Source: a virus | Lineage: Duplodnaviria; Caudoviricetes | IMG/VR virus record: IMGVR_UViG_3300033076_001589 | Span: 1-30,105 of that record | Length of the DNA stretch: 30,105 bases | Reading direction: 5' to 3' (one strand) | Shown here: positions 1-23,895 of the stretch, piece after piece | How positions within the stretch are numbered: the stretch's first letter is position 1 | How the letters are laid out: each line of letters begins with the position of its first letter | Translations under genes and position numbers: made by a program | The notes under the pieces: model-generated | The model's input: the letters and a program-made list of their open reading frames with translations, nothing else | Told to the model about the DNA's origin: nothing | Databases searched by the model: none

Positions 1-1
1 A

Positions 2-2575
2 CGTGCCGTCCAGGACCAGCAGGCCGGACGCCACCACGGTGCCGGAGACCCCGGTCGTCCGGCCAGTGATGGTGGTGTCCAGCCGGAATGCACGATTGCT
101 CACTCCGCTGCCCAGCGTCACCGCCCCGGAATCCAGCAGGGTGGTGGACCCGGCCTTGAGCCGCACGCGGATCGTGGGTGTCCCGGTGGTCGAATAGTAT
201 CCTCCGGCCGACACGCCGACAGATTTGCCCGCCGAACTGACGCCGGTGCCGCGCAGCCAGTTGGCCGGCAACGTGGCACTCCCAAGTCCGGAGCCGACCA
301 GCGTGGTCTCCGTGACCGTGTTGGCCACGGTGACCGAGGCAGTCTGGCGGAAATGCTCGGCCACCGGCTTGTCAAAGCCGGCATCGCCCATCTGGTTCTC
401 CCCGCGCGTGTTCAGCGTGCCGCTGTCCGTAAGCAGGAGCCCGCGATCATTGCAGGCATTGTGTGTGAACACGCAATGGGACGCCTCGATGCTGGCGAAG
501 TAGCCGTTGCCGTTGGCGTTGGCCACCGTGTTGCCCTGGGCCACCGAATACAGGCAGGTCCCGGAATCGAACCGGATGGGGATGACGGCCGCGGAATCGA
601 GCACAAACGTGTTGCCCATCACCACGGCGCGGGGGCCGCGCACGCGAACCTGGCTGTTCAGGTTGGGCGTGGAGCTGTTGTCCAGGAACACGCACGAGAC
701 GACCCGGCACCGCTCGCTGGTCGTGTCGAGGTTGAGCTGCATCGAGCTGCTGGATTTGGCGTAGTCCCAGCGGCACCCCAGCCACTGCGTGCCCGTGCCG
801 GCATCGGAGCAGACGGCGCCACTGGGCGTGCCGGTGCTAGGGCCGAAGTAGCAGCGGTCGAAGATGACGTTCTCGGCGCCGTCAATGATCTCGACCGCCT
901 TGGCGTTCCAGCTCCGAAAACTGACGTTGCGCAACGTGATGTTGCGGGAAGCCGCGTCAATGTAGGCACAGCCGGCCGACAGGCTGGACGGCTGGCCGAT
1001 GATCTCGATGTTCTCAAAGAGCACATCGTGACCCTGGGCAAAGATCGGGGACTTGGATCCGGCCAGCGTGTCATCCGGAGAGACGATCTGGATGTTGCGG
1101 AAGGCAATCTGCCGGGGGATGTCGTCCGCCGCCAGCAGGGTGGCCGCCTGCACGTCCAGCGCCTGCCCGCTCCGGCTCACGATGCCGTTCTGGAACGTCA
1201 CGTTTTCCACCCGCTTGGTGTCGTCGTGACAATGCACGTTCACGACGAAGGTGTAGGTGAAGTAGCTGACGTTGGAGACGTTTCCGGCGGGCTTGATCAG
1301 GTCGCACTTGAACCCGTCCACAAACAGGTTCTCCGACCCGTCCTCGAATTCAAATGCCCGGTCGCTCCGCCACATGGACACCGCCTCAAACCGGCAGTTC
1401 GAGGCCGCCCTGAACCAGCCCACGGTGCCGGTGGCGGGCGAGGCGGCCGGCGTGGAGTCCGTCTTGTAGGTGAAGGTGGTGCTGGTGGGCGTGGTTTCCA
1501 CCACCCACTTCCCGTTGTAGGCGGTCTGCGTGGCGTTGCGCACCCACACGCGGTCGCCCGGCACCAGGTTGTGCGCGGCGGAAGTGGTCGCGGTGGCCGT
1601 CGTGCCGGAGCTGGTCAGCGACGAGAGGTTCGCCTGGGTGTCGGAGCTGTTGACGTGCAGGCAGGACGCCGACCCGTCCCAGCTCTTGATCTGCGTGAAG
1701 GTGCAATGAGAGACAAGCACGTTGCGCTTGGCGTTGATGTCCACGCCGTGCCCGGCGTATTCCCAATGCACATCCGCAATCGCGCTGTCATCGCCCGCCT
1801 GGATTTCGCGCGAGTCACCGTCCCAGTGCGCCGCAGTGTAAGTCGAGATGTCCGCAGTGTAGGGCGACGTTCCGGTCAGCGACGCGAGCACCGTGTAGCG
1901 CCCCATGCTCACGGCCGGCGTGTTGGCCGGGATGGCAAAGCTGAGGATGGTAAGGCTGCGGCCGGCACCCACCAGGGCCTGGCCGGCGGAAAGGGTCAGC
2001 GTGTTCGTCACCGTGTAGGTCCCGGCCGGAAGCAGGACACTCTTGCCCGCAGCCAACGCCGCCGTGATGGCCAGGTAATCGTCCAGACCGTCGTCCGGGA
2101 TGGCGCCGTATTCACGGGCGTTCACCGCCGACTGCTTGAGGTGGTTGAGCTGCGTCTGGAGGGTGTTGGTTGCGCCGTCCAGATAGCTCAGCTCGTTGGT
2201 GCTCAGGGTCACGCCGCCCACGGACAGCGGGCCGGAGATCCCCGTTGTGCCGCCCAGCAGGCCGCCCGTGATCATGCCGCTGTAGGGCACTGATACCCAG
2301 CGCCCGGTGCTCGCGCCGTAGGGCGAGGCGATGACGCGGGGGAATCCGCTGCTGTTCGTCGCTGCGGTCGAGCTGTTGTCCCACACGAAGAGCTGGGTGC
2401 CGCCGGTGTCGCCGATCTGCACGGTCGCCTGCGTTGTGCCGCCGCTGTCCTTGCGGCCGAGCAACTGTGGCCGGCTGGTCTGCAGCGCGCCCACGGTGGG
2501 CACCGTGACCACTTCCTGGGCCAATGCCTGCAGGAGCGCGAAGGCCGTGAAGACCAGTAAGAAGATGCGTCTCAT
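2..2575 (-). CDS. Tailspike / pectate-lyase-like beta-helix protein, >=858 aa, 3' end outside window (not in ORF track)
   Basis: Manual translation: MRRIFLLVFTAFALLQALAQEVV... NELSYLDGATNTLQTQLN... VNAREYGAIPDDGLDDYLAITAALAAGKSVLLPAGTY (Pectate_lyase_3-type start of beta-helix); ATGA overlap with the upstream stop. Confidence 0.88.
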   Translation of the reverse strand, partial: MRRIFLLVFTAFALLQALAQEVVTVPTVGALQTSRPQLLGRKDSGGTTQATVQIGDTGGTQLFVWDNSSTAATNSSGFPRVIASPYGASTGRWVSVPYSGMITGGLLGGTTGISGPLSVGGVTLSTNELSYLDGATNTLQTQLNHLKQSAVNAREYGAIPDDGLDDYLAITAALAAGKSVLLPAGTYTVTNTLTLSAGQALVGAGRSLTILSFAIPANTPAVSMGRYTVLASLTGTSPYTADISTYTAAHWDGDSREIQAGDDSAIADVHWEYAGHGVDINAKRNVLVSHCTFTQIKSWDGSASCLHVNSSDTQANLSSLTSSGTTATATTSAAHNLVPGDRVWVRNATQTAYNGKWVVETTPTSTTFTYKTDSTPAASPATGTVGWFRAASNCRFEAVSMWRSDRAFEFEDGSENLFVDGFKCDLIKPAGNVSNVSYFTYTFVVNVHCHDDTKRVENVTFQNGIVSRSGQALDVQAATLLAADDIPRQIAFRNIQIVSPDDTLAGSKSPIFAQGHDVLFENIEIIGQPSSLSAGCAYIDAASRNITLRNVSFRSWNAKAVEIIDGAENVIFDRCYFGPSTGTPSGAVCSDAGTGTQWLGCRWDYAKSSSSMQLNLDTTSERCRVVSCVFLDNSSTPNLNSQVRVRGPRAVVMGNTFVLDSAAVIPIRFDSGTCLYSVAQGNTVANANGNGYFASIEASHCVFTHNACNDRGLLLTDSGTLNTRGENQMGDAGFDKPVAEHFRQTASVTVANTVTETTLVGSGLGSATLPANWLRGTGVSSAGKSVGVSAGGYYSTTGTPTIRVRLKAGSTTLLDSGAVTLGSGVSNRAFRLDTTITGRTTGVSGTVVASGLLVLDGT

Positions 2576-3270
2576 GGTTCGTAACCCTCCAGCACCCAGC
2601 GGCCGGGCGAGGCGTCGCTCGGCACGTCAATGGGCAGGATGATGGTGATGCCGTCGCTGATCCGCGTGTCGGTGGTGTCCTTGTTGAACCAGCGCCCGGA
2701 TCCCAGGATCGCTCCGTTCTCGTCGCGAAGGACGCGGACGCGCGTGGGGTAGCTCGCGTCGAACACGCCGAAGCTCGCCAGATCCTGGAGATCGCCGGCG
2801 GTCACGTTGACCAGGCTGCTGATCCCGTGCGCCTTCAGCGTCACGTTGGTGGAGCTGGTGACCGTGAAGTAGTTCGTCGGCAGCGCGAGCCAGGCGCTCT
2901 TCGCGTTGAGCTGGGCCTGGAGACCCGCCGTCACGCCGGAGAGGTAGCCCGCCTCCGTCCGCGTCACGCCGACGGACACCAGGTAGCCGTTGTCATCGAG
3001 CGCGAGCACGCGGTTCGTGCTGCCGATGCTCAGCAGCGTGTCGCCGATCAGCGTCGAGTTGGCCAGCGTCAGTCCGCTGCCGGAACCGTTCGCCGCCTTC
3101 AGGTAGCCGTTCAGCGCAATCGCGTTGCTGATGCCGGCCATGTTCGTCTTCCAGAAGCCGCTCCGCAGCACCGTGCCGTTGGTGTCGGTGAGCAGGCCGA
3201 TCTGCGGGGCGGCGCTCGCGGCCAGCAGGACGAACAGCGAAGACGCGAGGAAGCGAAGGAAGGTGCTCAT
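2572..3270 (-). CDS. Putative tail fibre/tailspike-adaptor protein with signal-peptide-like N-terminus
   Basis: TEAGYLSGVTAGLQAQLNAK fibre motif and C-terminal D..DG.TII.P...GRW motif resembling tailspike N-terminal domains; both motifs shared with the downstream gene. Confidence 0.7.
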   Translation of the reverse strand: MSTFLRFLASSLFVLLAASAAPQIGLLTDTNGTVLRSGFWKTNMAGISNAIALNGYLKAANGSGSGLTLANSTLIGDTLLSIGSTNRVLALDDNGYLVSVGVTRTEAGYLSGVTAGLQAQLNAKSAWLALPTNYFTVTSSTNVTLKAHGISSLVNVTAGDLQDLASFGVFDASYPTRVRVLRDENGAILGSGRWFNKDTTDTRISDGITIILPIDVPSDASPGRWVLEGYEP

Positions 3271-3749
3271 GTCGGGGTGGCGGTGCCGGTGGAGTCGAGC
3301 GACAGGGAGAACACGCCGCCGGACACGACGCCCGTGACGCGATGGAACTGCGTGGTGTCCGGGTTCCGCAGGTAGAGGTGCCCGTTGATGATGAACACGT
3401 CGTCCGTGCTCTGGCTTGCCGGCAGGTAGCTCGGGTTCGGTGTCGGGGTGACCGGCGTGGGCGTGACCACGCTGTCGTCGATCAGGTCCACGAAGTCGTA
3501 GCTGCCCGACTCCTCCGTCACCTGGATCTGGATCCGCGGGCCCGCGCCGAAGGTGAACTCATACCATCCCGGCGCGAGCGCGACCGTGAAGGCCCCGTCG
3601 TCGTCGCTGCGGATGTGGCGCGTCTGGGCGGCCACCACGCTGCCGGACTCGGTCACCACGGGTGCGGTGGCCGACGTCTCGATCTTGATGGCCAACGACA
3701 CACCGCTGCCGGTGATCGCGAGCACGTTGCCGGTGATGGTGGCGGGCAT
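3267..3749 (-). CDS. Putative tail fibre N-terminal-like (attachment) protein, 160 aa
   Basis: Start reassigned to MPATITGNV (TGATG coupling); SDDDGAFTVALAPGWYEF resembles prophage tail fibre N-terminal domains. Confidence 0.65.
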   Translation of the reverse strand: MPATITGNVLAITGSGVSLAIKIETSATAPVVTESGSVVAAQTRHIRSDDDGAFTVALAPGWYEFTFGAGPRIQIQVTEESGSYDFVDLIDDSVVTPTPVTPTPNPSYLPASQSTDDVFIINGHLYLRNPDTTQFHRVTGVVSGGVFSLSLDSTGTATPT

Positions 3750-4402
3750 CAGGTGAGGAGTTCGTTGACCACGTTGCTCGGCAGCCAGCCGGCCAGCCAG
3801 GCGCGGGCCTTCAGCCGCGTGCCGGCCGCGGGGCGGCCGAACGGGCCGGTGTAGAGCGTGCCGTTGCGTGGCGCGGGGTTCCGCCCGTCGAGCGTGTAGA
3901 AGATCGCGGCGCCAGGCGTCGCGCACGTCAGCTCGATCGGATCGCCGCTCACGTCGGCGGTGAGGACCAGCTCGTCGAGTTCGGCGTCGAGGCCGCCCGC
4001 GGCGGTGAACTCCACGTTGTGCGCCGTCATGCCGGGCTGCGGATCGGCCAGCACCAGGCTCCGGCCCACCAGAGGCACCGACAGCGAATCGGGCGTCCAG
4101 TGGTGGAGCAGCGTCAGCGCCCGCTCGGCACACGCCAGGGCGCGGGGCCCGGCGGCGTTCAGGAGCGGCGTCTCGGCACACGCGACGACGATGCGGATCG
4201 GATCCAGCCGCGGGCCCTGCAGGTCGCCGTTCGTCACGTCGGCGTTCGGCGTGAGGATGACGATGGACACACCCAGCGTCGCGAGCGCCCGCTCAATCTC
4301 GCTGTCGAGGTCGGCGGACTTCTGGGTGAGCACGTCCACGTCGGCGAAGAAGGCGTCGGCCTCCAGCCGGGCGGCGATCTCCTGTTGGAGTTCCAGGAGC
4401 AT
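3749..4402 (-). CDS. Putative tail-completion protein fused to a chitobiase/beta-hexosaminidase C-terminal (FN3-associated) domain
   Basis: Start MLLELQQEI (TGATG coupling); C-terminal IELTCATPGAAIFYTLDGRNP..GTLYTGPF..LKARAW is the CHB_HEX_C pattern; position after neck genes. Confidence 0.65.
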   Translation of the reverse strand: MLLELQQEIAARLEADAFFADVDVLTQKSADLDSEIERALATLGVSIVILTPNADVTNGDLQGPRLDPIRIVVACAETPLLNAAGPRALACAERALTLLHHWTPDSLSVPLVGRSLVLADPQPGMTAHNVEFTAAGGLDAELDELVLTADVSGDPIELTCATPGAAIFYTLDGRNPAPRNGTLYTGPFGRPAAGTRLKARAWLAGWLPSNVVNELLT

Positions 4403-5064
4403 CAGGCCTCTCCCTTCTGCGCCTTGGCGGCGGCGCGCTTGGACTGCAGGGCGACCCACGCATCGAGCGCCTGGGTGGACGCACCGATGATGGCGGCGCG
4501 ATCCGGCAGCACGGTGGGGTCGGGTCGTTGGGTCACCGACTTGACCAGCCAGAACCAGACGCCGCCACCGCGCTCGAACTCCGCCGCGGCCGGCTCGTCG
4601 CCCCGGCGCCGGCCGGAGAGGGCTTCGTCGCGCGCCCCGAGGTCGCTGCGGTCGGCCTCGACCAGGGCACCGGCCCCGGAGCGGAAGAAGATCGGCACGA
4701 GGAAGGGATGCTCCTTGGCCCGCGTGCCGTAGGCCTCGCTTCGCGCGGGGATCGTGAGGAACTTCCGGCCGTTCGTGGGCCGGATCGTGCCGCCTTCGAC
4801 GCGCTGCCGGATGCCGACGTGGGCGACGTTCACCTTCACGGTGCCACCCTCGGCGGTCGCGCTGGTGGCCTTGGCCGCCTGGCTGAAGAAGTTCGTGCGC
4901 TTGCCGCCGAGCCGGTTTGGGCGCTCGTCGTTGAGCTTGAACAGGTGCGTGCGGAAGAGGTTCGCCGCGGCGGGCGCGACCACGCGGGCGGCGCGGGCCG
5001 GCTTCACCTGCTCGATGAGGTCGGCGAGCGAGCCCGTGGCCTGGTCGTTGAGGAGGACTCTCAT
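4402..5064 (-). CDS. Virion morphogenesis / neck protein (Mu gpG-like)
   Basis: GGTIRPTNGRKFLTIP and WLVKSVTQ.PDP motifs, basic composition, synteny. Confidence 0.65.
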   Translation of the reverse strand: MRVLLNDQATGSLADLIEQVKPARAARVVAPAAANLFRTHLFKLNDERPNRLGGKRTNFFSQAAKATSATAEGGTVKVNVAHVGIRQRVEGGTIRPTNGRKFLTIPARSEAYGTRAKEHPFLVPIFFRSGAGALVEADRSDLGARDEALSGRRRGDEPAAAEFERGGGVWFWLVKSVTQRPDPTVLPDRAAIIGASTQALDAWVALQSKRAAAKAQKGEA

Positions 5065-5822
5065 GCGGCGAGGGCGAAGGGGCGGGACTGCGGCTCGATC
5101 ACGTCGAGATCACCGATGACGCCGAGCGCCACGGCGGTCTCGCGGTCCACGTCGCGGGTCCACATGCCGGAGTTGAAGTCGAAGGGCGGGTAGGGCGTGC
5201 CGAAGCGGGACAGCTCGCTCCAGATCGGCGAGTCCTTGCGGGCGATCAGGCGGCCGGTGGCGGCGGCGACCTCGGCGGCGTCGGTGTCGCCCACGGCGGC
5301 GGCGGCCTCGGCCCAGCGTTGCGACCAGTCGCGGGGCACCTTGCGGCCCTCGGCGCGGAAGAGTTCCCAGCAGGGGAACAGGTCCAGGGCTTCCTCGGTC
5401 TGCGCCTGGGCGAACTGGCCGTAGCCCTGCGCCTGCTCGACGTTGGTCTTCAGGATCAGGTCCAGGCGCACGTTGCTGGACAGGTCCTTCAACGTGCCGC
5501 GGTCCTCCGGGTCGGGCTGGTAGCCGGCGTCGGCAAGGGCCTGCTTCAGCTCGGCGCGGGCGCTGGCGAAGTCGAGTCCCTGGGTGAAGGGCGAACCGTC
5601 GGCGCGCACCTGGGCGCTGGGCCGGAGGATTCGGTCCACGCGGTCGGCGAAGGCTTCCAGGAAGTCCTGCCGGGCCACGCGGGCGCTGAAGAAGGACCGC
5701 TCGCGCACCTCGGCCGGGAGCTGCTGCAGCTCGGCCGTGCCCCAGTTCGTGGGCAGCAGCGACTGGGCCGCGCGGCGTTGGAGCGCCTCGGCGAAGTCGG
5801 TGATGGTGTCCAGGAGGGGCAT
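5061..5822 (-). CDS. Head morphogenesis protein (Mu gpF-like)
   Basis: RSFFSARV, RLDLILKTNVEQAQGYG and YPPFDFNSG motifs typical of Phage_Mu_F-like proteins. Confidence 0.78.
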   Translation of the reverse strand: MPLLDTITDFAEALQRRAAQSLLPTNWGTAELQQLPAEVRERSFFSARVARQDFLEAFADRVDRILRPSAQVRADGSPFTQGLDFASARAELKQALADAGYQPDPEDRGTLKDLSSNVRLDLILKTNVEQAQGYGQFAQAQTEEALDLFPCWELFRAEGRKVPRDWSQRWAEAAAAVGDTDAAEVAAATGRLIARKDSPIWSELSRFGTPYPPFDFNSGMWTRDVDRETAVALGVIGDLDVIEPQSRPFALAA

Positions 5823-5834
5823 GGAGCGGGGAGT

Positions 5835-6290
5835 TCAGAGGCCGGCCATCTGGCTCGGCTTGGCGCGACGGGGGGAGGAGGAGAGGACAGTGACGCGGCC
5901 GCTGCCGATGACTTCGGCGGAGACGGTGGCGGGTTGCTCGACCTTGAACGTGCAGGCGGCGACGCGGGCGAAGAGGCGTTCGGCGGCCTTGTTCGCCTCG
6001 ACCCGGTCCTCGGTCAGCAGCGACCGGCCGAGCGGCAGGCGGGTGAACGCCTCGAAGCGGACGCGGGCGAGCGTGGCGGACTTGAGCTCCTCGGGGATCG
6101 TGAGCCCGTCGCCCAGGGAGTTCTCGGCACACGCGGCCACGTAGCCGCGGACCTCCTTGATGATCTCGGCCAGGATCGCCGTGAAGGGATCACTCTGGCC
6201 GCTGCTGAGCGCGGCGGTCTGCAGGGCGGTGAACTCGGCTCCGGTGAGGGAGCGCTTCACGTCGTCGGTGCTGAGGGTGATCCAGGCCAA
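5835..6290 (-). CDS. Head-tail adaptor (Mu gp36 / DUF1320-like)
   Basis: TTG start MAWITLSTDDV, EVRGYVAA, TIPEELK; lies immediately after the capsid gene. Confidence 0.75.
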   Translation of the reverse strand: MAWITLSTDDVKRSLTGAEFTALQTAALSSGQSDPFTAILAEIIKEVRGYVAACAENSLGDGLTIPEELKSATLARVRFEAFTRLPLGRSLLTEDRVEANKAAERLFARVAACTFKVEQPATVSAEVIGSGRVTVLSSSPRRAKPSQMAGL

Positions 6291-6313
6291 GGCGAGTGGA
6301 GAGTGGAGGGTGG

Positions 6314-6352
6314 AGAGAAGGGCGCGCGGCGCGACAGGAACGCAGCGCGCCC
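6314..6352 (-). terminator. Possible weak terminator/stabilising hairpin after the capsid gene
   Basis: GGGCGCGC...GCGCGCCC stem followed by TTCTCT on the minus strand. Confidence 0.4.
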
Positions 6353-6365
6353 GTGGTGGGTCACG

Positions 6366-7364
6366 TCAGGAGACGGTGATCTTCCGGATGTTGCTGGTGA
6401 GCCCGGAGGTGATGACGACGTTGGAGTAGTGCTCGACGGTGATGTCGGTGAACTTCTCCTGCTCGGTCACATAGACGCCGAACTTGCCGCCGCGGGCCGG
6501 GCTGCGGAACAGCTTGATGTCGGTCGCGTCGTCCTTCGTCACGCCCTGAAGCGCGAAGTAGAGCAACACGGTGCTGGCGGTCATCACGCCGGCCTTCGCG
6601 GACGACGTGGACTGGTAGCGCGCCTTGATGGGCAGCACGAGGTCCACCATCAGGTGGCGGGCCAGCTCCTGCTCGGTCATCGCGGCCTTGCGTGCGGCGG
6701 CGGGCGCGGTGCTGGCCTCGTAGGCACCCACGCGGGCATCCCACGCGGCCTCGGCGAACAGCACGGTGTTGGGCCGCACGCCGCTGATGTCGGCGGAGGC
6801 GCGGAGTTCCGTGCGGAGGTTGTCGTCGGGGTTGGGCGAGCCCGAGGTCCAGATGCGCGCCTGGTTGTTCGCCGCGGCGTTGAGCAGCACGAGCGCGCGG
6901 CGGAGGTCATTCCGCAGCAGGCGCATCATCAGGCGGTCCACCGCCTGTTCGCGCCAGGCATCGCCCACGACATCGTCGTGATCAATGCGCGTGGTGAGGC
7001 CCTTGTTGTGGGTCTTCTCGTTCACCGAGCTGCCGGTGTATTCGACGCGCTTGAACGGCGCACCGATGGCACGGATGTCATCGGTCTCGCTGAGGAACGC
7101 CTCGGCGTTGTTGGCCGCCTTGAACTCGAACCGGCGGGCCACCGACACCTCGGGCGCGACCTGCGCGAGCAGGGCCTCCAGGTTCTCGGGATCCTTCCAG
7201 CCCACGGTGTAGGCCGTGAGGGGCTCGGAGTAGTTGGCGGAGGTGAACCGCGCTTCGTTGGCGGCGTAGATCTGGCCCGCGACGAGGTCGCGACCGGAAT
7301 CGGCGGGGAGCGCAAAGGCGCGCTCGGCGGAATTGATGGCTTCGATGATCTTCCCGTGTTTCAT
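6366..7364 (-). CDS. Major capsid protein, 332 aa
   Basis: Start MKHGKIIEA; size and position after protease and decoration genes; GVRPNTVLF motif seen in HK97-fold capsids. Confidence 0.75.
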   Translation of the reverse strand: MKHGKIIEAINSAERAFALPADSGRDLVAGQIYAANEARFTSANYSEPLTAYTVGWKDPENLEALLAQVAPEVSVARRFEFKAANNAEAFLSETDDIRAIGAPFKRVEYTGSSVNEKTHNKGLTTRIDHDDVVGDAWREQAVDRLMMRLLRNDLRRALVLLNAAANNQARIWTSGSPNPDDNLRTELRASADISGVRPNTVLFAEAAWDARVGAYEASTAPAAARKAAMTEQELARHLMVDLVLPIKARYQSTSSAKAGVMTASTVLLYFALQGVTKDDATDIKLFRSPARGGKFGVYVTEQEKFTDITVEHYSNVVITSGLTSNIRKITVS

Positions 7365-7398
7365 GGGATTGGGACTTGGAGTTGCGGTGGAGCGCGCG

Positions 7399-8277
7399 TT
7401 AGCTCGCCTGGGTGAAGGTGACTCCCGCGGCGACGCGGCTGATCGCGTAGGCGAACCAGCTCGTGCCGTCGGTGTAGAACTCGACCTTGTCGCCGGCCAC
7501 CGACTGGTTGGCGACGAAGGACACGGTGTCGTCGGCGGTGCCGGAGTCGCCCGCATCACCGGCCACCGAGTTCTGGTTGCCCTTGATGATGTTGGCGGAG
7601 CTGGCGGTGACGACGGTGTAGGCCCCGCCGGTCGGCGCGGTCTGCACGATGAACGTGAACCGCATGCCGGCGACGGGCGCGGGCAGCGTGCTGACGAAGC
7701 CGGCGGCGGCGTTCAGGTAGAACGTCTTCCCGCTCTCGCTGGCCGCGATGACGTTGGTGGCGGTCACCGTCTCGGTGTTCGCCACCTGGATCGGCTCGCA
7801 GTCCTGCACTTCGACCACGTCGCCGTCGGCGGCCGCGGTGGTCAACAGCGTGCCGACCAGCACGGACCCGCTCAGGGCGATCTTGCCCGACGCGGCGGCA
7901 TAGACGTAAACGCCCGTGGTGGCCATCGCCTCGCTCGCGACCATTCGCTTGGTGCTGCCCTTGCCGAGCAGACCCAGCGTGACGGGCACGGCGGCGATGT
8001 CAGCGGTGGCGACCTCGTCGGCGATGACGCCGAGCGGCAGGTCGGTGGCGCCAGCCACGGCGAAGGTGTTGGCCGCCACGCCGCGCTTGTAGAGCAGGTG
8101 GCGGGTGGTGATGGCGGCGTCGGCGTAGCCGGTGAGGCCGTCTTCGTGGGTGCCTTCGGCGATGTTGGCGCCGTAGGTGATGCGGGCATCGCCACGGCGC
8201 CGAAGCGCGATGACGGCCAGGAGGCCGGCCGCCAGGATCAGCGGCAGGCAGAGGAGGAACAGGAACAGGGAGTTCAT
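7399..8277 (-). CDS. Capsid decoration/cement protein (DUF2190-like) with N-terminal hydrophobic anchor and C-terminal extra domain
   Basis: Start MNSLFLFLLCLPLILAAGLLAVIALRRR; AGATDLPLGV..VGTLLTTAAADGDVVEV is DUF2190-like; between protease and capsid genes. Confidence 0.7.
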   Translation of the reverse strand: MNSLFLFLLCLPLILAAGLLAVIALRRRGDARITYGANIAEGTHEDGLTGYADAAITTRHLLYKRGVAANTFAVAGATDLPLGVIADEVATADIAAVPVTLGLLGKGSTKRMVASEAMATTGVYVYAAASGKIALSGSVLVGTLLTTAAADGDVVEVQDCEPIQVANTETVTATNVIAASESGKTFYLNAAAGFVSTLPAPVAGMRFTFIVQTAPTGGAYTVVTASSANIIKGNQNSVAGDAGDSGTADDTVSFVANQSVAGDKVEFYTDGTSWFAYAISRVAAGVTFTQAS

Positions 8278-8308
8278 GGGACTGGGGAGGGGACTTGGTT
8301 GCGGGGAC

Positions 8309-8476
8309 TCAATCGGCCTTCTTGGCCTTCTTGTCGGCCTTGGCCTTCTCGGCTTCGGCTTCGTCATGGGCGACTTGGGCGCGGACCACTCGGACCGCGT
8401 GTTCCCGGCTCAGGCCGGCTTGGACCCGCCAGGCGATCTCGTCGGCGTAGGTCTCTTCAAAGGTCTTCTCAGGCAT
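8309..8476 (-). CDS. Small hypothetical head-module protein, 55 aa (below ORF-track cutoff)
   Basis: MPEKTFEETYADEIAWRVQAGLSREHAVRVVRAQVAHDEAEAEKAKADKKAKKAD; fills the gap, with a C-rich leader like its neighbours. Confidence 0.7.
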   Translation of the reverse strand: MPEKTFEETYADEIAWRVQAGLSREHAVRVVRAQVAHDEAEAEKAKADKKAKKAD

Positions 8477-8506
8477 GGGAGGGAGAGGATGGGAGTTGGG
8501 ACTGGT

Positions 8507-9640
8507 TCACTTGCCGTTGGCGGCATCGACGAAGAGGGCGTGCTTCTCCTGGCGCAGCCGGACGAAGGCTTCCTGGTAGGTGCAGCCGTCCTTCCGCATG
8601 CGCTCGTTCACGGCGGTCTGGATCTGGTCCAGCTTGGAGCGCGTGTCGGCGTTGCGCTGGCCCAGGCCGGCGCTGACCGGCTGGGTGTGGAGGCGCCTGG
8701 TCCGCGCGGCGAGCTTCGCCACGGTGGCGTCGAAGGCGACCTCGTTCGCGAACTCCGCCTCCAGGGCGGGCCGTTCGGCGGCGGTGAGCCGGCCTTCGGT
8801 GACCGCGTGGTCGAGCAGGAGCTTCGCGCGCTCCTTGCGTTCGTTGGCGGCGGTGGTGGTGGCGGCGGTGGCCCTGGCCTCCGCGGCGGTGAGCTGGCCG
8901 GTGAGTTCGGTGACCCTGGCCTTGGCCGTGGTCGCCTCGTTCGCGGCCGAGGTGAGGCGTTCGCCGATCTGCATCAGCGCCGCCTTGATCTGGTCATCGG
9001 TCGCTTCGGGGGGAAGCTCGATGCCCTGGCTCTTGAGCCAGTTGAGGATCTCGGTCTTGTTCATGGTGGTGCTGTCACCTGGGAGTTCGTTGGCCGCGGT
9101 GACGGGCGGCACGGGGATGTTGGGCTCGTTGGTGAAGCCGACGCTCTTCAGCCGGAACGGGCGCCAGACGTTGCCTTCCTTGCGCATGGCCCAGTTCACC
9201 GAGTGGCCGTGGAAGGCCTCGCTCTCGATGAGCTGCCGGCCGGCGTCGCTCCACTTCACGTTCGCGGCCAGGCCGGTCTCGGTCGCCTTGAGCTGCTTGA
9301 TGCGGCCGTAGGCGCGGGTGTCGGTGTAGCGGGCCTTGAAGGCGTCGTGGTCCGGGTGGCCGATGTAGAAGGGCAGGCCGAGCAGGCGCGTGGGCAGGTT
9401 CGCGAGCCGTTTGAACTCGTTGACGATGTTCTCGGCGTCCTCGCGGCGGAAGCGCTGCAGGCCCACGCTGTTGTCGTGGTCGCCGTAGGGCGCGAGGATC
9501 ACCCAGTTGTCGGCGTCGGCCTTCAGCTCGTTGGCGGCGGAGATGTGGTCGCACTCGGCCGGCGCGGCTTCGTTGGCGGCCAGGGCAATGGCGGAGCGCG
9601 GAATGCGGAGTGCGGAATGGAGGCGGCGAAGCAGGTTCAT
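8507..9640 (-). CDS. Mu-like prohead protease I / scaffold Z
   Basis: YIGHPDH, AYGRIKQL, VKWSDAGRQLI, LKSVGFTNEPNI motifs; coiled-coil C-half with a possible internal start at 9064 (MNKTEIL). Confidence 0.9.
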   Translation of the reverse strand: MNLLRRLHSALRIPRSAIALAANEAAPAECDHISAANELKADADNWVILAPYGDHDNSVGLQRFRREDAENIVNEFKRLANLPTRLLGLPFYIGHPDHDAFKARYTDTRAYGRIKQLKATETGLAANVKWSDAGRQLIESEAFHGHSVNWAMRKEGNVWRPFRLKSVGFTNEPNIPVPPVTAANELPGDSTTMNKTEILNWLKSQGIELPPEATDDQIKAALMQIGERLTSAANEATTAKARVTELTGQLTAAEARATAATTTAANERKERAKLLLDHAVTEGRLTAAERPALEAEFANEVAFDATVAKLAARTRRLHTQPVSAGLGQRNADTRSKLDQIQTAVNERMRKDGCTYQEAFVRLRQEKHALFVDAANGK

Positions 9641-11259
9641 GCGGGGGTTCCGGGGGTGAGTCCGCGGAGAAGGCTGGTGGCGATGGCCTGGGCGAGCACG
9701 TCGGCGGAGTCGTCGGTGCGGTCGAGCTGCTGGCGGAGCGCGGAGGCGGGGTTGCGGAGCTCGCTGACGAGCCGGGCGGCGTTGGCGGCCCAGGCGACGG
9801 GTTCGGTGAGGGCGTTGAGCTCGGCGAGGCGGCGGGCGAGCGGCGACAGCTCGGCGGCCGTGGCGCGGCCGAGGCGGCGCCGGGCGTCGGCCACCAGGCG
9901 GAGGGTGTCCGCATCGGGCGCGGCGGCGGCGGCACGGGTGAGGGCGCGGCCCACCTCGTTGGCGGCCTCGTTCAGCGGCGGCCGGGGGAAGGCCCCGAAG
10001 GGATTCGCGGCGACGGGCGCGGGCGCGGGGCTCGTGAGGACCTGGTCGTCGGCATCGGCCGGGGTGCGGTCGTAGCGTTCGAGCGCGTCGTCCACGCTCA
10101 GGCGGGCGCCGCTGGCAATGAGGAAGCGGTCCACCTCCAGCTCGCGTTGGGCGTCGCGCTGGCGCGGCACGACGATCTTCACGTAGGCGAGGGGCTTCAC
10201 GCCTTCGCCGAAGCTCCAGGCGATGACGCGGCGATCGAGCTGTTCGTTGAGGGTCTCGCTCACGAGGGCGGCGTCGTCCTCTTCCAGGAGATCGCTCTCG
10301 CTGCCCTGCACGCTGGCGCCCTGCCCCTGCCCGGCCCCGGCGCTGAGGGTCGAGAGGTCCGCGCCGCGCCAGATCCGGGCGAGGGCGCGGTCCATGCGCT
10401 CGATCATCGGCTCGAACGGGAGCTGGCCGCTGTTGCCGACTTCCAGGAGGTTGATCTCGGAGGAACGGCTGCGGACCAGGGAGACTTCACGGGCGAGGCT
10501 CTCAACGGCGGTGCTGAGGGCGGTCCACTCGGGCGAGTCGGGCGCGGCGTCCGTGGCGGCATCGATGATGGGGAAGCCGAAGCGGTCGTTGTAGTTCACC
10601 CAGTCACCGAGCGCGAGGCGCTTGTAGGTGTAGGCGACGGCGCTGGGTTCGAGCAGCGCGGACTCGGAGGTGGTGATCAGCCAGGCGTCGCGGTCCATCG
10701 GCTGGCCGTCCCAGGCGGTGTCGCTGGGGAGGAAGCGCAGGGCGCCGGTGCGGCCTTCGAAGAACCAGAGGGGGACGTGCTGCAGCGTGGCGGTGAGCCC
10801 CATGGGCGAGGGCTGCCACAGGATCTCGTGCACGGCCCGGCGCAGGCCGAGGGCGCCGCGGAGCATCTGGCGCACGAGGAGCTTGAAGCCGCCGCGCACG
10901 TCGCGCTCCACCGCATCGGTGACCGCGAGGTTCGCGTAGAAGTGCTCGAGGGCGGCCTTGTGCGCCTCGGCCTCGGCGCGGCGCTCTTCGGGCACGTCGT
11001 CACCGATCAGGATGGCGTAGCCGTGGCGGGCCGGGCCGCCGGTGCGCTTGGCGATGACGGTGGCGAGCACGTCGTCGCGGCGGGCGATGGCATCGGCCAG
11101 CAGGGCGAACTCCCGGAAGGTGCCGGCGGCGAAGTGGTCGAGCCAGTCGCCGAGCTTGCTCGGTTCGAGCAGGCGGATGGGGTTCGTCCGGGTGCGCTTC
11201 TGGAAGGCGACGCGCTGCGGGGAGATGACCGAGGCGGTCGGTTCGGGGGTGGGATTCAC
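9637..11259 (-). CDS. Portal protein (Mu gp29 / DUF935-like)
   Basis: DWVNYNDRFGFP, ARIWRGADLST, LVSETLNEQL; between terminase and protease. Confidence 0.9.
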   Translation of the reverse strand: MNPTPEPTASVISPQRVAFQKRTRTNPIRLLEPSKLGDWLDHFAAGTFREFALLADAIARRDDVLATVIAKRTGGPARHGYAILIGDDVPEERRAEAEAHKAALEHFYANLAVTDAVERDVRGGFKLLVRQMLRGALGLRRAVHEILWQPSPMGLTATLQHVPLWFFEGRTGALRFLPSDTAWDGQPMDRDAWLITTSESALLEPSAVAYTYKRLALGDWVNYNDRFGFPIIDAATDAAPDSPEWTALSTAVESLAREVSLVRSRSSEINLLEVGNSGQLPFEPMIERMDRALARIWRGADLSTLSAGAGQGQGASVQGSESDLLEEDDAALVSETLNEQLDRRVIAWSFGEGVKPLAYVKIVVPRQRDAQRELEVDRFLIASGARLSVDDALERYDRTPADADDQVLTSPAPAPVAANPFGAFPRPPLNEAANEVGRALTRAAAAAPDADTLRLVADARRRLGRATAAELSPLARRLAELNALTEPVAWAANAARLVSELRNPASALRQQLDRTDDSADVLAQAIATSLLRGLTPGTPA

Positions 11260-11423
11260 CGGTCACCTCCCGGTTGGAGGTCGGAAGCGGGGTTAGATGC
11301 ACCCACAGGAATGCCCCAACGCGTGCTGCTATGCCCGGCCATTGAACGATTGGCGCCGGCCGGGGTGTTGACACCCCCCAATTCGTCCTGGGGCATTCTG
11401 GAGCGTCGGCGGAAGAGGGTCAT
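11256..11423 (-). CDS. Small coupled ORF, 55 aa, between terminase and portal
   Basis: ATGA overlap with the terminase stop and GTGA overlap with the portal start; open throughout (MTLFRRRSRMPQDELGG...GGDR). Confidence 0.4.
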   Translation of the reverse strand: MTLFRRRSRMPQDELGGVNTPAGANRSMAGHSSTRWGIPVGASNPASDLQPGGDR

Positions 11424-12877
11424 ACGGCACCCCTCCGGCGGTTGAACCGGTCGCGGCTGACCGGGGAGGCGTGGAAGGGGCCGCTCACGTCCTTGCCGGC
11501 ATGGACGGCGAGGGCGAGCGCCCAGAAGCGGTCCGCGTGGCCGTTGGTGCCGCGGTCGGCGGTGAAGCGGATGTTGCCGGACGCGGTGGTCTCCTTGCGG
11601 ATGGCGCGGAGATCGGCGCGGATGAGCTTGTCGTTGGGGATGCAGAGCGAGCGGTCCTCGCAGGCCGAGCGCACGGGGTAGGCCAAGTCCGCCTTGACCG
11701 GGCCGGTGAAGGTGACCGCCTCGACCCGGTAGTTGCCGAAGCGCTTCTGCGCCCGCTCGGCGAACTGCTTGCCCAGGCCGGTGGCGTCAATGCAGCAGCG
11801 GCGCACGCCGGGCAGGGCGAGGATCTGGTAGAGCGTGTCCTCCTGGGCGTCGAAGGTCTCCCGCTGCATCGTCACCACCTCGCGGGTGTGCAGCACACCG
11901 CCGTCGCGCTCGATGACCCAGATGACGGTGAGATCGTGGTCGCGGCCCACGTCCACCCCGACGAACAGCGGATTGCGCGCCTTGGCCAGCTCGGCAAGCG
12001 GGTGGCGCCATTGCTCCGTCAGGGCATACTCGCAGCCCGCGATCAGGTCGTAGGAGAGGAACGCGGCGTTGTCGTCGGCCGGGACGCAGCAGAACTCCTG
12101 GAGGAAGGATTCCTCGTCGGCGCACTCGGCGCGCACCGCGTTGAAGTAGTCCGTCTCGTCGTAGCCCTGGCGCTCGTCATCGGCGGGGAGCTTGGACTGG
12201 AGCTTGTAGAGGAAGCCCTGGTCCAAGGCGTCCTGCAACGTGACGCGGTGGAGCGAGAAGCCCTTGGGGTTGCCGCCGTGCCGCGCTTCCTCGATCAGCT
12301 TGTTGAAGAAGTTGTGCGATCCGCGGTGCGTGCTGAAGATCGACATCTTGCCGCCCCAGGTGATGCCCGGCTGCATGATGGAGTAGAGGAGGCGGGGGTC
12401 CTTGTGCAGGGCGAACTCGTCGGCCACGCGGTCGCCGCGCTTGCCCGCCTGGGCGTCGGGCGACGAGCTGAGGCTGTAGGCGGTGGCCCCGCTGGCGAAG
12501 GCGAGGGTGAAGGCGCTGCGCTGGCGGTCGCCGTCGAAGAAGGTCTCGCCCTGATCCTCGGCGCCGATCTTGAGCAGCGCGCCCCAATTCTTGAGATCAA
12601 GGATGAACAGGCGGGCCTGCATCTCATCGCGGGACGTGATCCACGCGTCGCGTTGACTGCCCTGCTGGCCTTTGTCGCGGACCAGGTCGTAGGCCGTCGC
12701 CCAGGTGAAGCCGATCTGGCGGGACTTCTCGCAGATGCGCTTCCGGCAGGCGTCCATCACCCAATCGCGCTGATACGGCAGCAGCATGGCATCGCGCACG
12801 GGGAACAGCTTGCACCGGCCGGCGAACGGCGCCGGCACCCACGCGGGCCGCTTGGTGGTGACGACGGACGCGCTCAC
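11420..12877 (-). CDS. terL: Terminase large subunit (Mu gp28-like)
   Basis: LLPYQRDW, EKSRQIGFTW (Walker A), VADEFA (Walker B), VGVDVGRDHD, IDATGLG, GHADRFWALALA; GTG start overlaps the upstream stop. Confidence 0.95.
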   Translation of the reverse strand: MSASVVTTKRPAWVPAPFAGRCKLFPVRDAMLLPYQRDWVMDACRKRICEKSRQIGFTWATAYDLVRDKGQQGSQRDAWITSRDEMQARLFILDLKNWGALLKIGAEDQGETFFDGDRQRSAFTLAFASGATAYSLSSSPDAQAGKRGDRVADEFALHKDPRLLYSIMQPGITWGGKMSIFSTHRGSHNFFNKLIEEARHGGNPKGFSLHRVTLQDALDQGFLYKLQSKLPADDERQGYDETDYFNAVRAECADEESFLQEFCCVPADDNAAFLSYDLIAGCEYALTEQWRHPLAELAKARNPLFVGVDVGRDHDLTVIWVIERDGGVLHTREVVTMQRETFDAQEDTLYQILALPGVRRCCIDATGLGKQFAERAQKRFGNYRVEAVTFTGPVKADLAYPVRSACEDRSLCIPNDKLIRADLRAIRKETTASGNIRFTADRGTNGHADRFWALALAVHAGKDVSGPFHASPVSRDRFNRRRGAV

Positions 12878-14480: not shown

Positions 14481-15158
14481 TCAGGGCTTGGCGGCTTCGA
14501 CGAGCTTGGTCGCGGCCTCAATGACGGCGACGGCGTTGGTCGGGCCGCGGTTGTTGATCGAGTCGGTGCCGAAGCTCTGGGTCTTGTCGGTCTGCATGGC
14601 CTTGAGGTTCGCGATGGCCTGCGAGCCGCTGAACCAGGCGCGGCCACGGAGCTTGAACGTGATGCTGCGCTCCGGACTGGTGTCCCCCTGCTCGACCACG
14701 AACGAAGTGCAGCCGGGGAACAGCAGCAGGCCGAACAGCAGCAGGGCCACGGCGGGCGGCGACTTGCCCACGTTGTGCTTCACGATCTCGCGCACGCCCA
14801 CGCCGGCACTGCCGGCCACGGCGCCCGCAACGGTGCCACCGGCGTTCAGGCCCGCTTGGGTGAGGGCATACTCCAGGAGGCCGCCCAAGATGGGCGCAAT
14901 CACCGGCAGGCTGCCGGCGGGGAGTTGGGGGAAGGCCCGCTTCAGCCCGGCGATGAGCAGCGGCACCAGCACGGTGATGATCAGCGCGGTGGGCGGCAGC
15001 GCGGGAGCGGCTGGGCCGGGCACAGTGACCACGGCGGCCGGGTCAACCGGCGTGGCGACCGGCAGCTCCTGGGCGCCGGCGGCGAAGGTGAGGGCGAAGA
15101 CGGCGAACGCGGCCAGCAGACAGGCGCACGCCGCCGCGAAGGTGCGGGGAGTCTTCAT
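14481..15158 (-). CDS. Holin-like membrane protein fused to a lipoprotein-like C-terminal module; first late gene
   Basis: Start MKTPRTFAA; signal peptide; holin-like IITVLVPLLIAGLK..LPVIAPILG..GAVAGSAGVGVREIVK; internal ALLLFGLLLFPGC. Confidence 0.6.
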   Translation of the reverse strand: MKTPRTFAAACACLLAAFAVFALTFAAGAQELPVATPVDPAAVVTVPGPAAPALPPTALIITVLVPLLIAGLKRAFPQLPAGSLPVIAPILGGLLEYALTQAGLNAGGTVAGAVAGSAGVGVREIVKHNVGKSPPAVALLLFGLLLFPGCTSFVVEQGDTSPERSITFKLRGRAWFSGSQAIANLKAMQTDKTQSFGTDSINNRGPTNAVAVIEAATKLVEAAKP

Positions 15159-15273
15159 GGGAGAGGGAGGAGCCGGACGCAGCGCGAGGGAGGGACGCGA
15201 CACGTTGGACGACGGAGGCGCGGAACCGCGCCACGTCCGGCGGAAGGGGGTGGTCAGGGCGGCAAGACCCGAC

Positions 15274-15475
15274 CATAGTATCCTGAGGAGACTATGCTCG
15301 CCGGAAAGGCGATTCCGGGCCGGGGACGGAGCATAGTATCCTGAGGAGACTATGCTCGTCTTCGAGGGGCAATTCGGGCTCAGGACCGACCATAGTATCC
15401 TGAGGAGACTATGCTCGCCGGAGAGGCGATTCGGGGTCTGGGAGCGACCATAGTATCCTGAGGAGACTATGCTCG
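15274..15475. repeat. Array of four identical 27-bp palindromic repeats with 31-32 bp related spacers
   Basis: CATAGTATCCTGAGGAGACTATGCTCG at 15274, 15332, 15391, 15449 (period 58/59/58). Confidence 0.97.
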
Positions 15476-15586
15476 TCTTCGGGGGCCGCTGCGCTGTGTC
15501 CAACATGCGCTCACAGGGTGAGCGCACCGGGAATCAATTGTCCCGTGACCGAAGGGAAAGCCGGGGGCTTTGGGCGGAAATGTGGC

Positions 15587-16294: not shown

Positions 16295-16355
16295 GCGGCC
16301 GGGACGGTGCCACGTTCCGACGGAGGGGCTAGCCCAAAATGGACAGCCCGTCCGG

Positions 16356-16829
16356 TTAGTGGGGTCCCCGCGGATCGTAGCCGTGGGAGCGCGCCAGGCC
16401 GTTCGTCAGCAGCAGGCGGCCCAGATCGCGGCCGTCGGGCAGCGTCACGTAGCCGGTCACCCGGCCGCCGCTGGGCGTGTGTGCGCCGCGGGTGATGATG
16501 GTGAAAGGGGCCGCCGCGAGGTGCGTGCGCGTGAACTCGGTGGCCACCTGCCCCAGGGCGAGCACGCCGGCGGTGTTGGTCTGCCAATGCGCCGCCTGCT
16601 CGGCCACGCGGGCCTTGAGGCTCCGGGTGGTCTCCGGGCAGTCCACGGCGTAGAGGCGCAACACCAGGCGGTTGGTGCCGTGCGCCACACGGAACGAGTC
16701 GCCGTCGTTGTGCGCGTCCTCGATCATCGTGCAGTTCGTCCACGTCTGCCACGTCTGCCACGGCGGCGGCGGGGGCGCGGCCAGGGCGCTGAGGACCCAC
16801 AGCGAAGACGCGAAGGCGCGAAGGAGCAT
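16356..16829 (-). CDS. Secreted thermonuclease (SNase-like), apparently C-terminally truncated
   Basis: Signal peptide; DGDSF, LRLYAVDCPET, GRVTGYV, DLGRLLLTNGLAR; no final A...GIW-type helix. Confidence 0.8.
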   Translation of the reverse strand: MLLRAFASSLWVLSALAAPPPPPWQTWQTWTNCTMIEDAHNDGDSFRVAHGTNRLVLRLYAVDCPETTRSLKARVAEQAAHWQTNTAGVLALGQVATEFTRTHLAAAPFTIITRGAHTPSGGRVTGYVTLPDGRDLGRLLLTNGLARSHGYDPRGPH

Positions 16830-21765: not shown

Positions 21766-23865
21766 ATGAACGACTTGACCTCCATCGTTGATCCCGACCT
21801 GTCCGCCTGCGCAGCCATTGAACCGCGAGGCGATGCCGGGGAGATGGAGGTCACCCCTCTCCCCACCGCCGCCACGGATCGCCTCCCACAGGACGTGCAT
21901 GCGTGCGGTCTTCCGCCCCTCCCGGCGCCGGCCTGCGATCCGGCGCCGGACTCCGCCCCCGTCTCCGCCGAGCGCCTCACCGAGGCCGGCCGCCGGCAGC
22001 GGCTCGTCGAGCTCTACCGCTCCCTGCAGGCCAGCGGCCGCACCCGCAACCAGGCCGTCGCCGAGATCTGCCGCCATGTGGATGGCGACTGCTCCCGCGC
22101 CACGCTCGACCGGTGGGACGCCCGCTTCACCGCCGGCGGCTTCCCCGCGCTGCTGCCCGAGACGCACCGCTGCGGCCGCAAGTCGGCGATGGCCAAGCTC
22201 CGCGAATCCCTGGGCGACGTGACCGTGGGCGAACTCATGCGGCAGGCCCGCGGCCTCGCCCACGACACCCAGAGCGAGGTGATGGCGCTCCGGATGCTCG
22301 CCCACTCGCCCATCGCCCCCGAGCCGCTGGCCCAGCTCGTGGACTACGCCGCGCACGGCGGCCGCCGCAGCAGCAAGCACGCGCTGCCCCCGAGCGTGCG
22401 CGACGAGCTGCGCCGCAACCCCGCGTTGGCCCTCCGCCACCAGGGCCCGCGCGCCAGCGCCCTCCGCGGCTTCTGGATCCCGCGCAAGGTGGACATCCTG
22501 CCCGGCGACGTGTGGACCTCCGACGACACCACGCCCATCTGGGGCTGGTGGGTGCCGTGGCCGCACGCGCTCGGCAACCCGGCGTTCCCCAAGGCGAGCT
22601 GCGAACACCGCTTCGGCGTGAAGCTCCTGCAGGGCCAGCTCCTGCCGCTGATGGACGTGGCCTCGAACGCCATCTTCAGCGTCGCGCTGATCGCCCGCGA
22701 GACCAGCGCCTACCGGGCGAGCGACATCTGGGCCATGTTCGGCCGGGCCTTCCAGCTCTACGGGCTGCCGCGCCTCGGCTTCCAGCTCGAACGCGGCTCC
22801 TGGGAGGCCAACCTGATCCGCGGCCAGAAGGTCGAGACCGAGGTCGAAGGCATCCCGCTCGAACGCCGCGTGGGCGGCCTGCGGATGCTGCCGACCAACG
22901 TGACCGACTGGCACCGGCAGACGCACGGCGCCGACTTCGCCTTCCCCGGCACGCTGCAGACGTGGACCAGCTACCTGCCCAAGTCGAAGCCGGTCGAAGC
23001 GGCCTTCGACCGGATGCAGACGCTGGAGGGGACGCTGTGGGGGAACCTCGGCCGCGACCAGATGCGCCGGCCGAACGAACGGGCGAAGCGGCAGTTCGAG
23101 GCGTGCCGCCGCGGCAGCGCCGATCCCCGCGAGCACTTCCTCAGCGGCACCGAGCTGATGACGCGCCTCAAGGGCCTGATCGAGTTCCTGAACAGCGAGC
23201 CGATGGAAGGCGAAGTCTTCAAGGGCGTGCCCCGGCTGCTGTGGGAGCAGGGCCTGCGGGAGCATCCGCTCCGGCACCTGCCCGACGCGGAGAGCTACCT
23301 GTTCCGCCGCTCCTGGCACGTCACCAAGGTGACCCGCGGCTGGGTGACCGCGCGCTTCACGGATGCGCAGGGCGAGCGCGCCCTCGCGCGCTACTGCAAC
23401 CCTGAGCACTTCCCCGCACTCGAAGGCCGCGAGGTGGCCGCCTACTTCGACAGCGAGGCGCCCGACGAGCCGGCCCAGATCCACGACGCGGCGACCGGGG
23501 AGTTCCTCTGCACGGCGGAGGGCTTCGGCGCCCGCGGCCTGTTCCTCGATCACAGCCGCGACGGCCACGAGCTGAAGCGCCGCTACAACCAGGCGCTGAC
23601 CACGCTCTACGGCGACATCGCGGCGACGGCCCCGAGCCGGCAGTTGCCCGCGGAGATCAAGGCCCGGCGGGAAGCGGCCGGCGGCACGCCCGAGGACGCC
23701 GCGGCAGCCCCGCGGCCGGAGGACGGCCGCACCGTGGCCCCGGCCCGGCCGGCGGCCATCCGGAGCGCGAACGCCTTCGCGCCCGTGACCCAGGACGACT
23801 TCGCCTCACGGATCGCCAAGCAGCGGCGGCGCCAGGCGGCGCTGGCCGCGACGGACGCGGACTGA
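21766..23865 (+). CDS. Mu-like DDE transposase A
   Basis: N-terminal HTH (SRATLDRW), GDVWTSDDTT, LMDVAS, YGLP, SKPVEAAF; followed by an AAA ATPase. Confidence 0.9.
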   Translation: MNDLTSIVDPDLSACAAIEPRGDAGEMEVTPLPTAATDRLPQDVHACGLPPLPAPACDPAPDSAPVSAERLTEAGRRQRLVELYRSLQASGRTRNQAVAEICRHVDGDCSRATLDRWDARFTAGGFPALLPETHRCGRKSAMAKLRESLGDVTVGELMRQARGLAHDTQSEVMALRMLAHSPIAPEPLAQLVDYAAHGGRRSSKHALPPSVRDELRRNPALALRHQGPRASALRGFWIPRKVDILPGDVWTSDDTTPIWGWWVPWPHALGNPAFPKASCEHRFGVKLLQGQLLPLMDVASNAIFSVALIARETSAYRASDIWAMFGRAFQLYGLPRLGFQLERGSWEANLIRGQKVETEVEGIPLERRVGGLRMLPTNVTDWHRQTHGADFAFPGTLQTWTSYLPKSKPVEAAFDRMQTLEGTLWGNLGRDQMRRPNERAKRQFEACRRGSADPREHFLSGTELMTRLKGLIEFLNSEPMEGEVFKGVPRLLWEQGLREHPLRHLPDAESYLFRRSWHVTKVTRGWVTARFTDAQGERALARYCNPEHFPALEGREVAAYFDSEAPDEPAQIHDAATGEFLCTAEGFGARGLFLDHSRDGHELKRRYNQALTTLYGDIAATAPSRQLPAEIKARREAAGGTPEDAAAAPRPEDGRTVAPARPAAIRSANAFAPVTQDDFASRIAKQRRRQAALAATDAD

Positions 23866-23895
23866 GGACGACGGAACGATCGGAGGAACGACACA

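Follow-up and report, generated by a model that had tools for sequence, protein, structure and literature searches.

The window analysed here is the whole of IMG/VR virus record IMGVR_UViG_3300033076_001589, a single virus contig of 30,105 nucleotides (nt), and the subject is a group of three genes at its left end, open reading frames (ORFs) A, B and C, the first two of which begin with predicted leader peptides for the host Sec system. Judged by Pfam and PHROG scans, the element is a Mu-like transposable phage; it encodes MuA-like and MuB-like proteins, Gam, gp27, a terminase, a Mu portal, a head protease and a major head protein. The early genes lie on the plus strand; the late genes form a single minus-strand arm, which leaves the contig at its left end inside ORF A. 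This arm ends in the order 3749–4402, ORF C (3267–3749), ORF B (2572–3270) and ORF A (2–2575). The start of each gene overlaps the preceding stop (TGATG between 3749–4402 and ORF C, ATGA between C and B and again between B and A), so that the starts of A and B are fixed. The features of this end of the arm are as follows (aa, amino acids; SPase I, type I signal peptidase).

3749..4402, minus strand: gene in the neck or tail-completion position (role from position only), with a C-terminal Fn3-associated domain (PF13287), coupled to ORF C
3267..3749, minus strand: ORF C, 160 aa, leaderless, with a PF08400-like predicted fold; candidate cytoplasmic docking piece
2572..3270, minus strand: ORF B, 232 aa, made of a leader, a short fibre and a conserved C-terminal domain; putative adaptor
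3211..3270, minus strand: predicted Sec/SPase I leader of B, 20 aa (heuristic, cut after residue 20)
2572..2853, minus strand: conserved C-terminal domain of B, about residues 140–232 (alignment), found behind several different N-terminal anchor modules
2..2575, minus strand: ORF A, more than 858 aa and cut by the contig end, made of a leader, a short N-terminal domain, a coiled coil and a beta-helix tailspike-like body
2519..2575, minus strand: predicted Sec/SPase I leader of A, 19 aa (sequence and heuristic, cut after residue 19)
2144..2203, minus strand: coiled-coil fibre motif in A, residues 125–144, common to B; the region weakly matches the phi29 pre-neck appendage
1421..1627, minus strand: small beta domain inserted in A at about residues 317–385, common to many leaderless phage virion-type proteins; several matches carry PF16190

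Leaders and modules of ORFs A, B and C

Leaders were called by our own heuristic, based on a basic n-region, an uncharged core and small residues at positions −3 and −1, with a false-positive rate of 1–3%, as measured on shadow ORFs (2 of 79), pseudo-starts in core proteins (6 of 435) and capsid orthologues (1 of 64). Three of 18 late genes are marked: A, B and a gene in the lysis position. By this heuristic both A and B show the features of Sec/SPase I substrates, a basic n-region, a hydrophobic core and small −3/−1 residues. The predicted cut exposes Gln in A and Ala in B, neither protein has a lipobox, and no membrane anchor is seen in their available parts. An earlier reading of this DNA, made from the sequence only, had described two adjacent, coupled late genes with leader-type starts; both N-termini are as quoted there, and the overlaps confirm the coupling. 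It had also described a tail-fibre block of two genes, of which the fibre character of A and B stands, but the block begins one gene earlier, at the leaderless ORF C, and A is incomplete.

In the family of ORF B the property of the leader is conserved while its sequence drifts. Among 18 non-self homologues, 15 have an SPase I-type leader, one is lipoprotein-like (SPase I by eye), one has a long leader recognised by eye only and one is leaderless; the heuristic flags 16 of these, or 17 when those seen by eye are counted. A profile search added one leaderless protein and one fragment. Against five close homologues, B is 20–55% identical in the leader and 70–88% identical in the mature part. The sequence-only reading had named homologues starting past the hydrophobic segment as evidence against a leader; since the B homologues keep theirs, they do not start in this way, and leaderless forms amount to two of 19 full-length proteins. 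The Sec export predicted there for A and B is well supported, as the property of the leader, and not its sequence, is kept across homologues and the phage family. The leader-type starts of A and B are real, conserved and unexpected for a tailed phage.

Alignment shows that the B family is modular, a single C-terminal domain being combined with varying N-terminal modules, and no Pfam, PDB or Atlas family was found for the C-terminal domain. In the relative P0011, the module directly behind the leader aligns, starting at profile position 2, with a family of baseplate wedge tail-fibre connectors (E 3.5e-6), and the sole PHROG match of B itself is a weak one to a virion-structural family (E 8e-4). 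The B–A pair recurs with an identical overlap in L006, a non-Mu viral contig, where it adjoins capsid genes; the B-family gene is followed there by an 807-aa leader-bearing beta-helix protein, the mature start of which matches that of A (E 9e-7). Homologues of C and B come from contigs of the same size in two cases (9,647 and 13,857 nt), which suggests that they are neighbours there also. The B family was not found in 401 genomes of the phylum Verrucomicrobiota, by metagenome scan or in GenBank phages, and among viral contigs it was found in one only. A likeness between the C-terminal domain of B and the N-terminal domain of A was set aside as a lead only (hhalign probability 3%); either of the two domains may also resemble the N-terminal domains of solved tailspikes.

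ORF A encodes a right-handed beta-helix with a pectate-lyase-like start, as expected of a tailspike (PF12708, E 4e-8; PF13229, E 4e-6). Among PHROG families it matches those of pre-neck appendages, tail fibres and virion structural proteins, and weak tblastn matches lead to phi29 gp12 and Vibrio phage tail fibres. No full-length homologue was found among 108 matches of A, 106 of which cover only the inserted domain; its last 180 aa match residues 717–899 of P0032, a 946-aa leader-bearing beta-helix protein. The model of mature A gave no Foldseek match at E ≤ 0.001, and PDB sequence searches gave for A only a weak polysaccharide lyase match (E 0.24). An argument from disulfides was dropped, as there are 14 Cys in A and none in B and the parity is mixed across relatives.

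Tailspikes and appendages of the beta-helix type (phi29 gp12, P22/Sf6 type), like lambda Stf, are not known to have a leader and fold in the cytoplasm. They resemble the proteins described here in the succession of N-terminal anchor, coiled coil and beta-helix body seen in A, and in the PF08400-like fold seen in C. Here, however, the spike and the adaptor bear leaders, A and its L006 homologue alike, ORF C being the only one without.

Over residues 1–95, C as modelled in the Atlas resembles clusters of the prophage tail-fibre N-terminal domain (PF08400), with template modelling (TM) scores of 0.48/0.76 (0.76 by target). A carboxypeptidase-regulatory-like fold, PF13620, also scores against this model, and the PF08400 Pfam profile gave no match for C or for the proteins P0009, P0017 and P0018 at E ≤ 0.5. 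In five of five cases C is leaderless. In P0009, P0017 and P0018 the C domain stands behind a leader and is aligned from the predicted cut (hhalign probability 83%, E 9e-6), and thus this anchor-like domain occurs both with and without a leader.

Fibre blocks of relatives and a Thr-Asn bias

Relatives of the capsid protein, with 46–63% identity, occur in 33 genome contigs, 32 of which are labelled as Verrucomicrobiota, Opitutia/Opitutales, Puniceicoccales or Kiritimatiellae; within the phylum, a capsid match is present in 16 of 401 genomes. Because its capsid relatives sit in genomes of this phylum, the phage very likely has its host in Verrucomicrobiota. Altogether 95 capsid loci were collected (handles beginning with L), many of them too short or duplicate, leaving 37 distinct elements with a readable tail block. 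Their genes come from our own gene caller, the tail blocks were labelled by eye and several leaders needed an upstream start; the names tube, Dit-like, BppU-like, tape measure and Tal reflect position and size only, and the tail genes tested had no Pfam or PHROG match.

Leader-bearing genes are present in the fibre block of 16 of the 37 elements (L012, L032, L035, L040, L041, L048, L065, L070, L074, L077, L078, L081, L147, L154, L156 and, by eye, L142). The bodies behind these leaders vary and include an S74-chaperone fibre, a GDSL esterase, a laminin-G lectin, kelch and glycine-rich proteins. Four of the proteins match tail fibre PHROGs, and the one in L012 combines such matches with an S74 chaperone at its end. 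In L070, a leader-bearing protein of 792 aa is the only large fibre-like gene until the end of the record. Leader genes also adjoin portal and capsid genes in relatives, so that attachment of leader-bearing proteins to the head is possible as well.

Mu-like phages such as B3 and BcepMu have divergent early and late arms. The phage described here likewise opposes early to late genes and shares MuA, MuB, Gam, gp27, the Mu portal and the protease, while its relatives differ from B3 and BcepMu in a tail block without a recognisable sheath gene (judged by position only) and in their leader-bearing fibre genes.

A bias toward the dipeptide Thr-Asn is an independent, although patchy, mark of export. 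Thr-Asn is the top enriched dipeptide in 25 leader-bearing structural-block proteins (166 against 77.5 in shuffles), in which Asn-Thr is depleted; the count in 82 core proteins is 80 against 60.4. Within four phages the excess is confined to the leader-bearing genes: L142 (50 against 13.4; leaderless genes, 9 against 10.5), L147 (42 against 11.6; 6 against 10.1), L154 (28 against 8.6; 12 against 11.1) and L158 (27 against 6.3; 15 against 10.8). ORF B has 5 against 1.4, and ORF A has 4 against 1.0 in residues 20–200 and 0 against 4.0 past those. The host sample comprised four genomes, at about 190–400 kilobases each. In G003 (L102–L121) the secreted proteins hold 66 against 31.6; its cytoplasmic class holds 88 against 60.6, with 59 of the 88 coming from two large proteins which resemble mis-started secreted ones and without which the count is 29 against about 38. 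G001, G002 and G004 show no excess.

Several readings were rejected. As a generic trait of fibres the bias would be expected without leaders, and the counts are 843 against 798.6 among 98 leaderless proteins hit by A, most of which belong to one family, and 31 against 29.5 in nine leaderless fibre-block proteins. For N-glycosylation of the STT3/PglB type, the N-x-S/T motif is found 11 times against 9.4 in A, 5 against 2.7 in B (p 0.12) and 130 against 133.9 in the 25 leader proteins; STT3 was seen in none of the four host genomes, which may be incomplete. The O-glycosylation motif of Bacteroidota, D-S/T-hydrophobic, shows no excess (43 against 50.1). The bias points to a modification of the envelope, as yet uncharacterised, in part of the phylum; that A and B themselves are modified in the periplasm is a conjecture to be held loosely.

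A second phage-like block adjoins the L012 prophage on the opposite strand and contains, among tail-like genes, a leader-bearing gene of 365 aa (L166:7497-8594). The compact head–tail clusters of the capsid family (L013-L021, L024-L031, L036 and L143-L149) form one clade and run directly into host genes in genomes of Puniceicoccales/Opitutales type; they may be domesticated elements resembling gene-transfer agents.

Proposed export, folding and attachment

The assembly of tailed phages is taken as wholly cytoplasmic, and fibres and spikes can be the final parts to join an otherwise complete particle, as in P22 and T4. No description of signal peptides on tail fibres, or of exported tail fibres, was found in the literature covered, which included few subscription papers and the accessible parts of PMC10367356, PMC12309495, PMC10769870, PMC10172136 and PMC6116005.

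The reading that accounts best for the observations overall, and one we regard as reasonably probable, combines Sec export, periplasmic folding and late docking on the particle, the docking being its less certain part. A and B would be exported through the host Sec system and their leaders cleaved, for which confidence is high, and would then fold in the periplasm, likely as trimeric fibre or spike parts. The head and core tail would be built in the cytoplasm, and A and B would join the cytoplasm-built particle late, once lysis opens the inner membrane; their attachment to virions appears likely. A tentative assignment within the chain would have ORF C dock in the cytoplasm, B act as the adaptor and A serve as a spike that binds or cuts polysaccharide. 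A broader and rather doubtful proposal is that tailed phages of Verrucomicrobiota build their particles in two compartments, a host system reading Thr-Asn (possibly an undescribed O-glycosylation) modifying the periplasmic fibres and spikes and the C–B–A chain joining at lysis.

A parallel exists in phage phi18:3 (KC821620), where gp085, gp086 and gp087 lie next to one another, as A and B do, and likewise begin with Sec-type leaders (flagged for gp086 and gp087, seen by eye for gp085). All three are annotated as structural proteins detected by tandem mass spectrometry (MS/MS), and nine other MS-annotated proteins that were translated have no leader. This is a Cellulophaga phage with a Bacteroidota host and is not Mu-like, its record is silent on leaders, and searches of GenBank phages brought up no link between its sequence and A or B.

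The sequence-only reading had left the choice between attachment to particles and a role as secreted factors. In the second case A and B would be exported without being virion parts, either as a depolymerase set free to remove polysaccharide of the capsule or envelope at release, or as surface fibres of the lysogen, which would dock on the cell and not on the particle. Real leaders and the enzyme-like beta-helix of A are in line with this, as is the failure to recognise an endolysin among the late genes scanned, and the occurrence of leader-bearing genes beside portal and capsid genes in relatives makes their position loose. The fibres called MAT in Bdellovibrio offer a model: they join a signal peptide to a phage-like trimeric fibre, with an S74 chaperone in 13 of 21, and since such leader-bearing trimers exist, S74 fibres can be exported; they differ from A and B in being chromosomal, on the cell surface and outside a phage late operon, and in having a conserved domain of ~130 aa past the leader (PMC10769870). 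Prophages of Porphyromonas gingivalis have Q-rule genes whose products bear SPase I leaders; their function was reported to be unknown, and they were read as possible modifiers of the outer membrane and host surface; A likewise exposes Gln, but B exposes Ala, many relatives are off the Q rule, and the P. gingivalis genes are not called fibres in the part of the report that was available (PMC10367356). Attachment is favoured over a purely secreted role because virion-type modules follow directly behind the leaders and because the leader-bearing proteins of phi18:3 are annotated as structural. Coupling to the neck and tail genes, with no promoter-like site found in positions 1–9000 (a weak test), and the lack of a lipobox or visible anchor argue in the same direction, and a role apart from the virion is unlikely.

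Export followed by late docking nevertheless has several results against it. In 21 of the 37 related elements there is a leaderless fusion or no clear fibre, so export is not required by the family. Nineteen of these lie in one supported clade of compact clusters in Opitutales/Puniceicoccales-type genomes with patchy gene calls (L152 and L153 fall outside), and the leader-bearing elements are scattered over the remainder of the capsid tree, a quick tree of 77 rows with a midpoint root, for which the careful search is unfinished. L012 has leaderless genes of 414 and 638 aa past the tape-measure block, which are candidates for receptor binding, and the B-domain relatives P0019 and P0134 are leaderless. 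The Thr-Asn excess is missing from A as a whole (4 against 5.0), from L156, L012, L032, L074 and L077 and from three of the four host genomes. The MS detection in phi18:3 could reflect co-purification. AlphaFold models have a low predicted local distance difference test (pLDDT) score, 40 for B (alignment of 19) and 37 for mature A (single sequence). The contig stops inside ORF A, and the tail genes of the phage itself lie beyond it. Finally, A and its L006 homologue share an in-frame GTG five codons past the predicted cut with a motif resembling a Shine-Dalgarno sequence upstream, because of which a leaderless form of A, made by an internal start, is possible.

This last point could be extended to two products per gene, with a leaderless form (from an internal start or a precursor escaping export) supplying the virion and the exported form being a side product or having a second job. 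The pattern, however, occurs in only two of 23 leader genes, which are homologues of each other, against a background of 16 in 230 windows, and the motif is a consequence of Gln-Glu-Val codons. In 16 of the 23 leader genes, B among them, there is no ATG or GTG close to the cut, and such a division of products is improbable. A further reading would make the leaders membrane tethers, which keep the fibres on the cytoplasmic side while assembly proceeds and are then taken off by the head protease of the phage, as is likely for the decoration protein. The decoration protein has an anchor of that kind, followed by an Ala-Asn motif like those repeated in the protease, portal and capsid. In A and B, however, the basic residues precede the hydrophobic core (N-in), small residues stand at −3/−1, no Ala-Ala-Asn lies near the leader and the Thr-Asn bias is shared with secreted host proteins; this reading is very improbable.

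Export of fibres with late docking, if true, would give tailed phages a second compartment and a post-lysis assembly step. Receptor-binding proteins could then use periplasmic folding or modification, polysaccharide-cutting spikes would be kept apart until release, and phages could take over secreted enzymes and lectins of the host, leaders included, as the tips of fibres. Among the proteins that annotation pipelines class as secreted ‘morons’ there may then be genuine parts of the virion.

Head module, lysis gene and repeats

The remaining features of the window are the following.

4402..12877, minus strand: Mu-like head module (terminase, Mu portal, protease, decoration protein, capsid and head-completion genes; Pfam/PHROG), leaderless except for the decoration anchor
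7399..8277, minus strand: decoration-position protein; its N-terminal membrane anchor is followed by three Arg (N-out/C-in)
14481..15158, minus strand: lysis-position gene, with a leader, a holin-like segment (phrog_1129 holin, E 4e-6) and a lipobox-like C-terminal part (lipobox by eye)
21844..25011, plus strand: MuA-like transposase and MuB-like ATPase (Pfam/PHROG), which mark the element as a transposable phage

The sequence-only reading had linked the decoration protein to the same route as A and B, but the charges of its anchor run the opposite way, and the anchor probably serves as a cytoplasmic tether outside the export route, a separate matter. The envelope-associated route of morphogenesis or egress proposed there finds no support in the tests made, the head and core tail genes being leaderless and the decoration anchor looking N-out/C-in. 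Decoration-position anchors of one or two helices also occur in L012 (L012:9322-9918), L041, L048 (L048:8856-9809) and L074; in L012 and L048, as here, Arg residues follow the helices, which suggests membrane-tethered head assembly. An Ala-Ala-Asn(-Glu) motif is repeated across 6366–11259: the protease has it eight times, the portal, the capsid and the decoration protein contain it as well, and relatives show it too. It is likely the prohead-protease cut site.

Three 15-nt repeats at 29843–29972 may be transposase-binding sites or mark the other end of the phage. Upstream of the late arm, at 15269–15485, a near-palindromic element of 27–30 nt occurs four times with a spacing of ~58 nt, so arranged that a 117-nt unit is present twice (92% alike) and the spacers resemble one another. 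No Rfam match above chance was found for this element, which may serve late control or the binding of a protein. The stretch that separates the repressor from the late arm contains, at 15587–17194, genes for a thymidylate kinase, a leader-bearing staphylococcal-nuclease-like protein and a small membrane protein.

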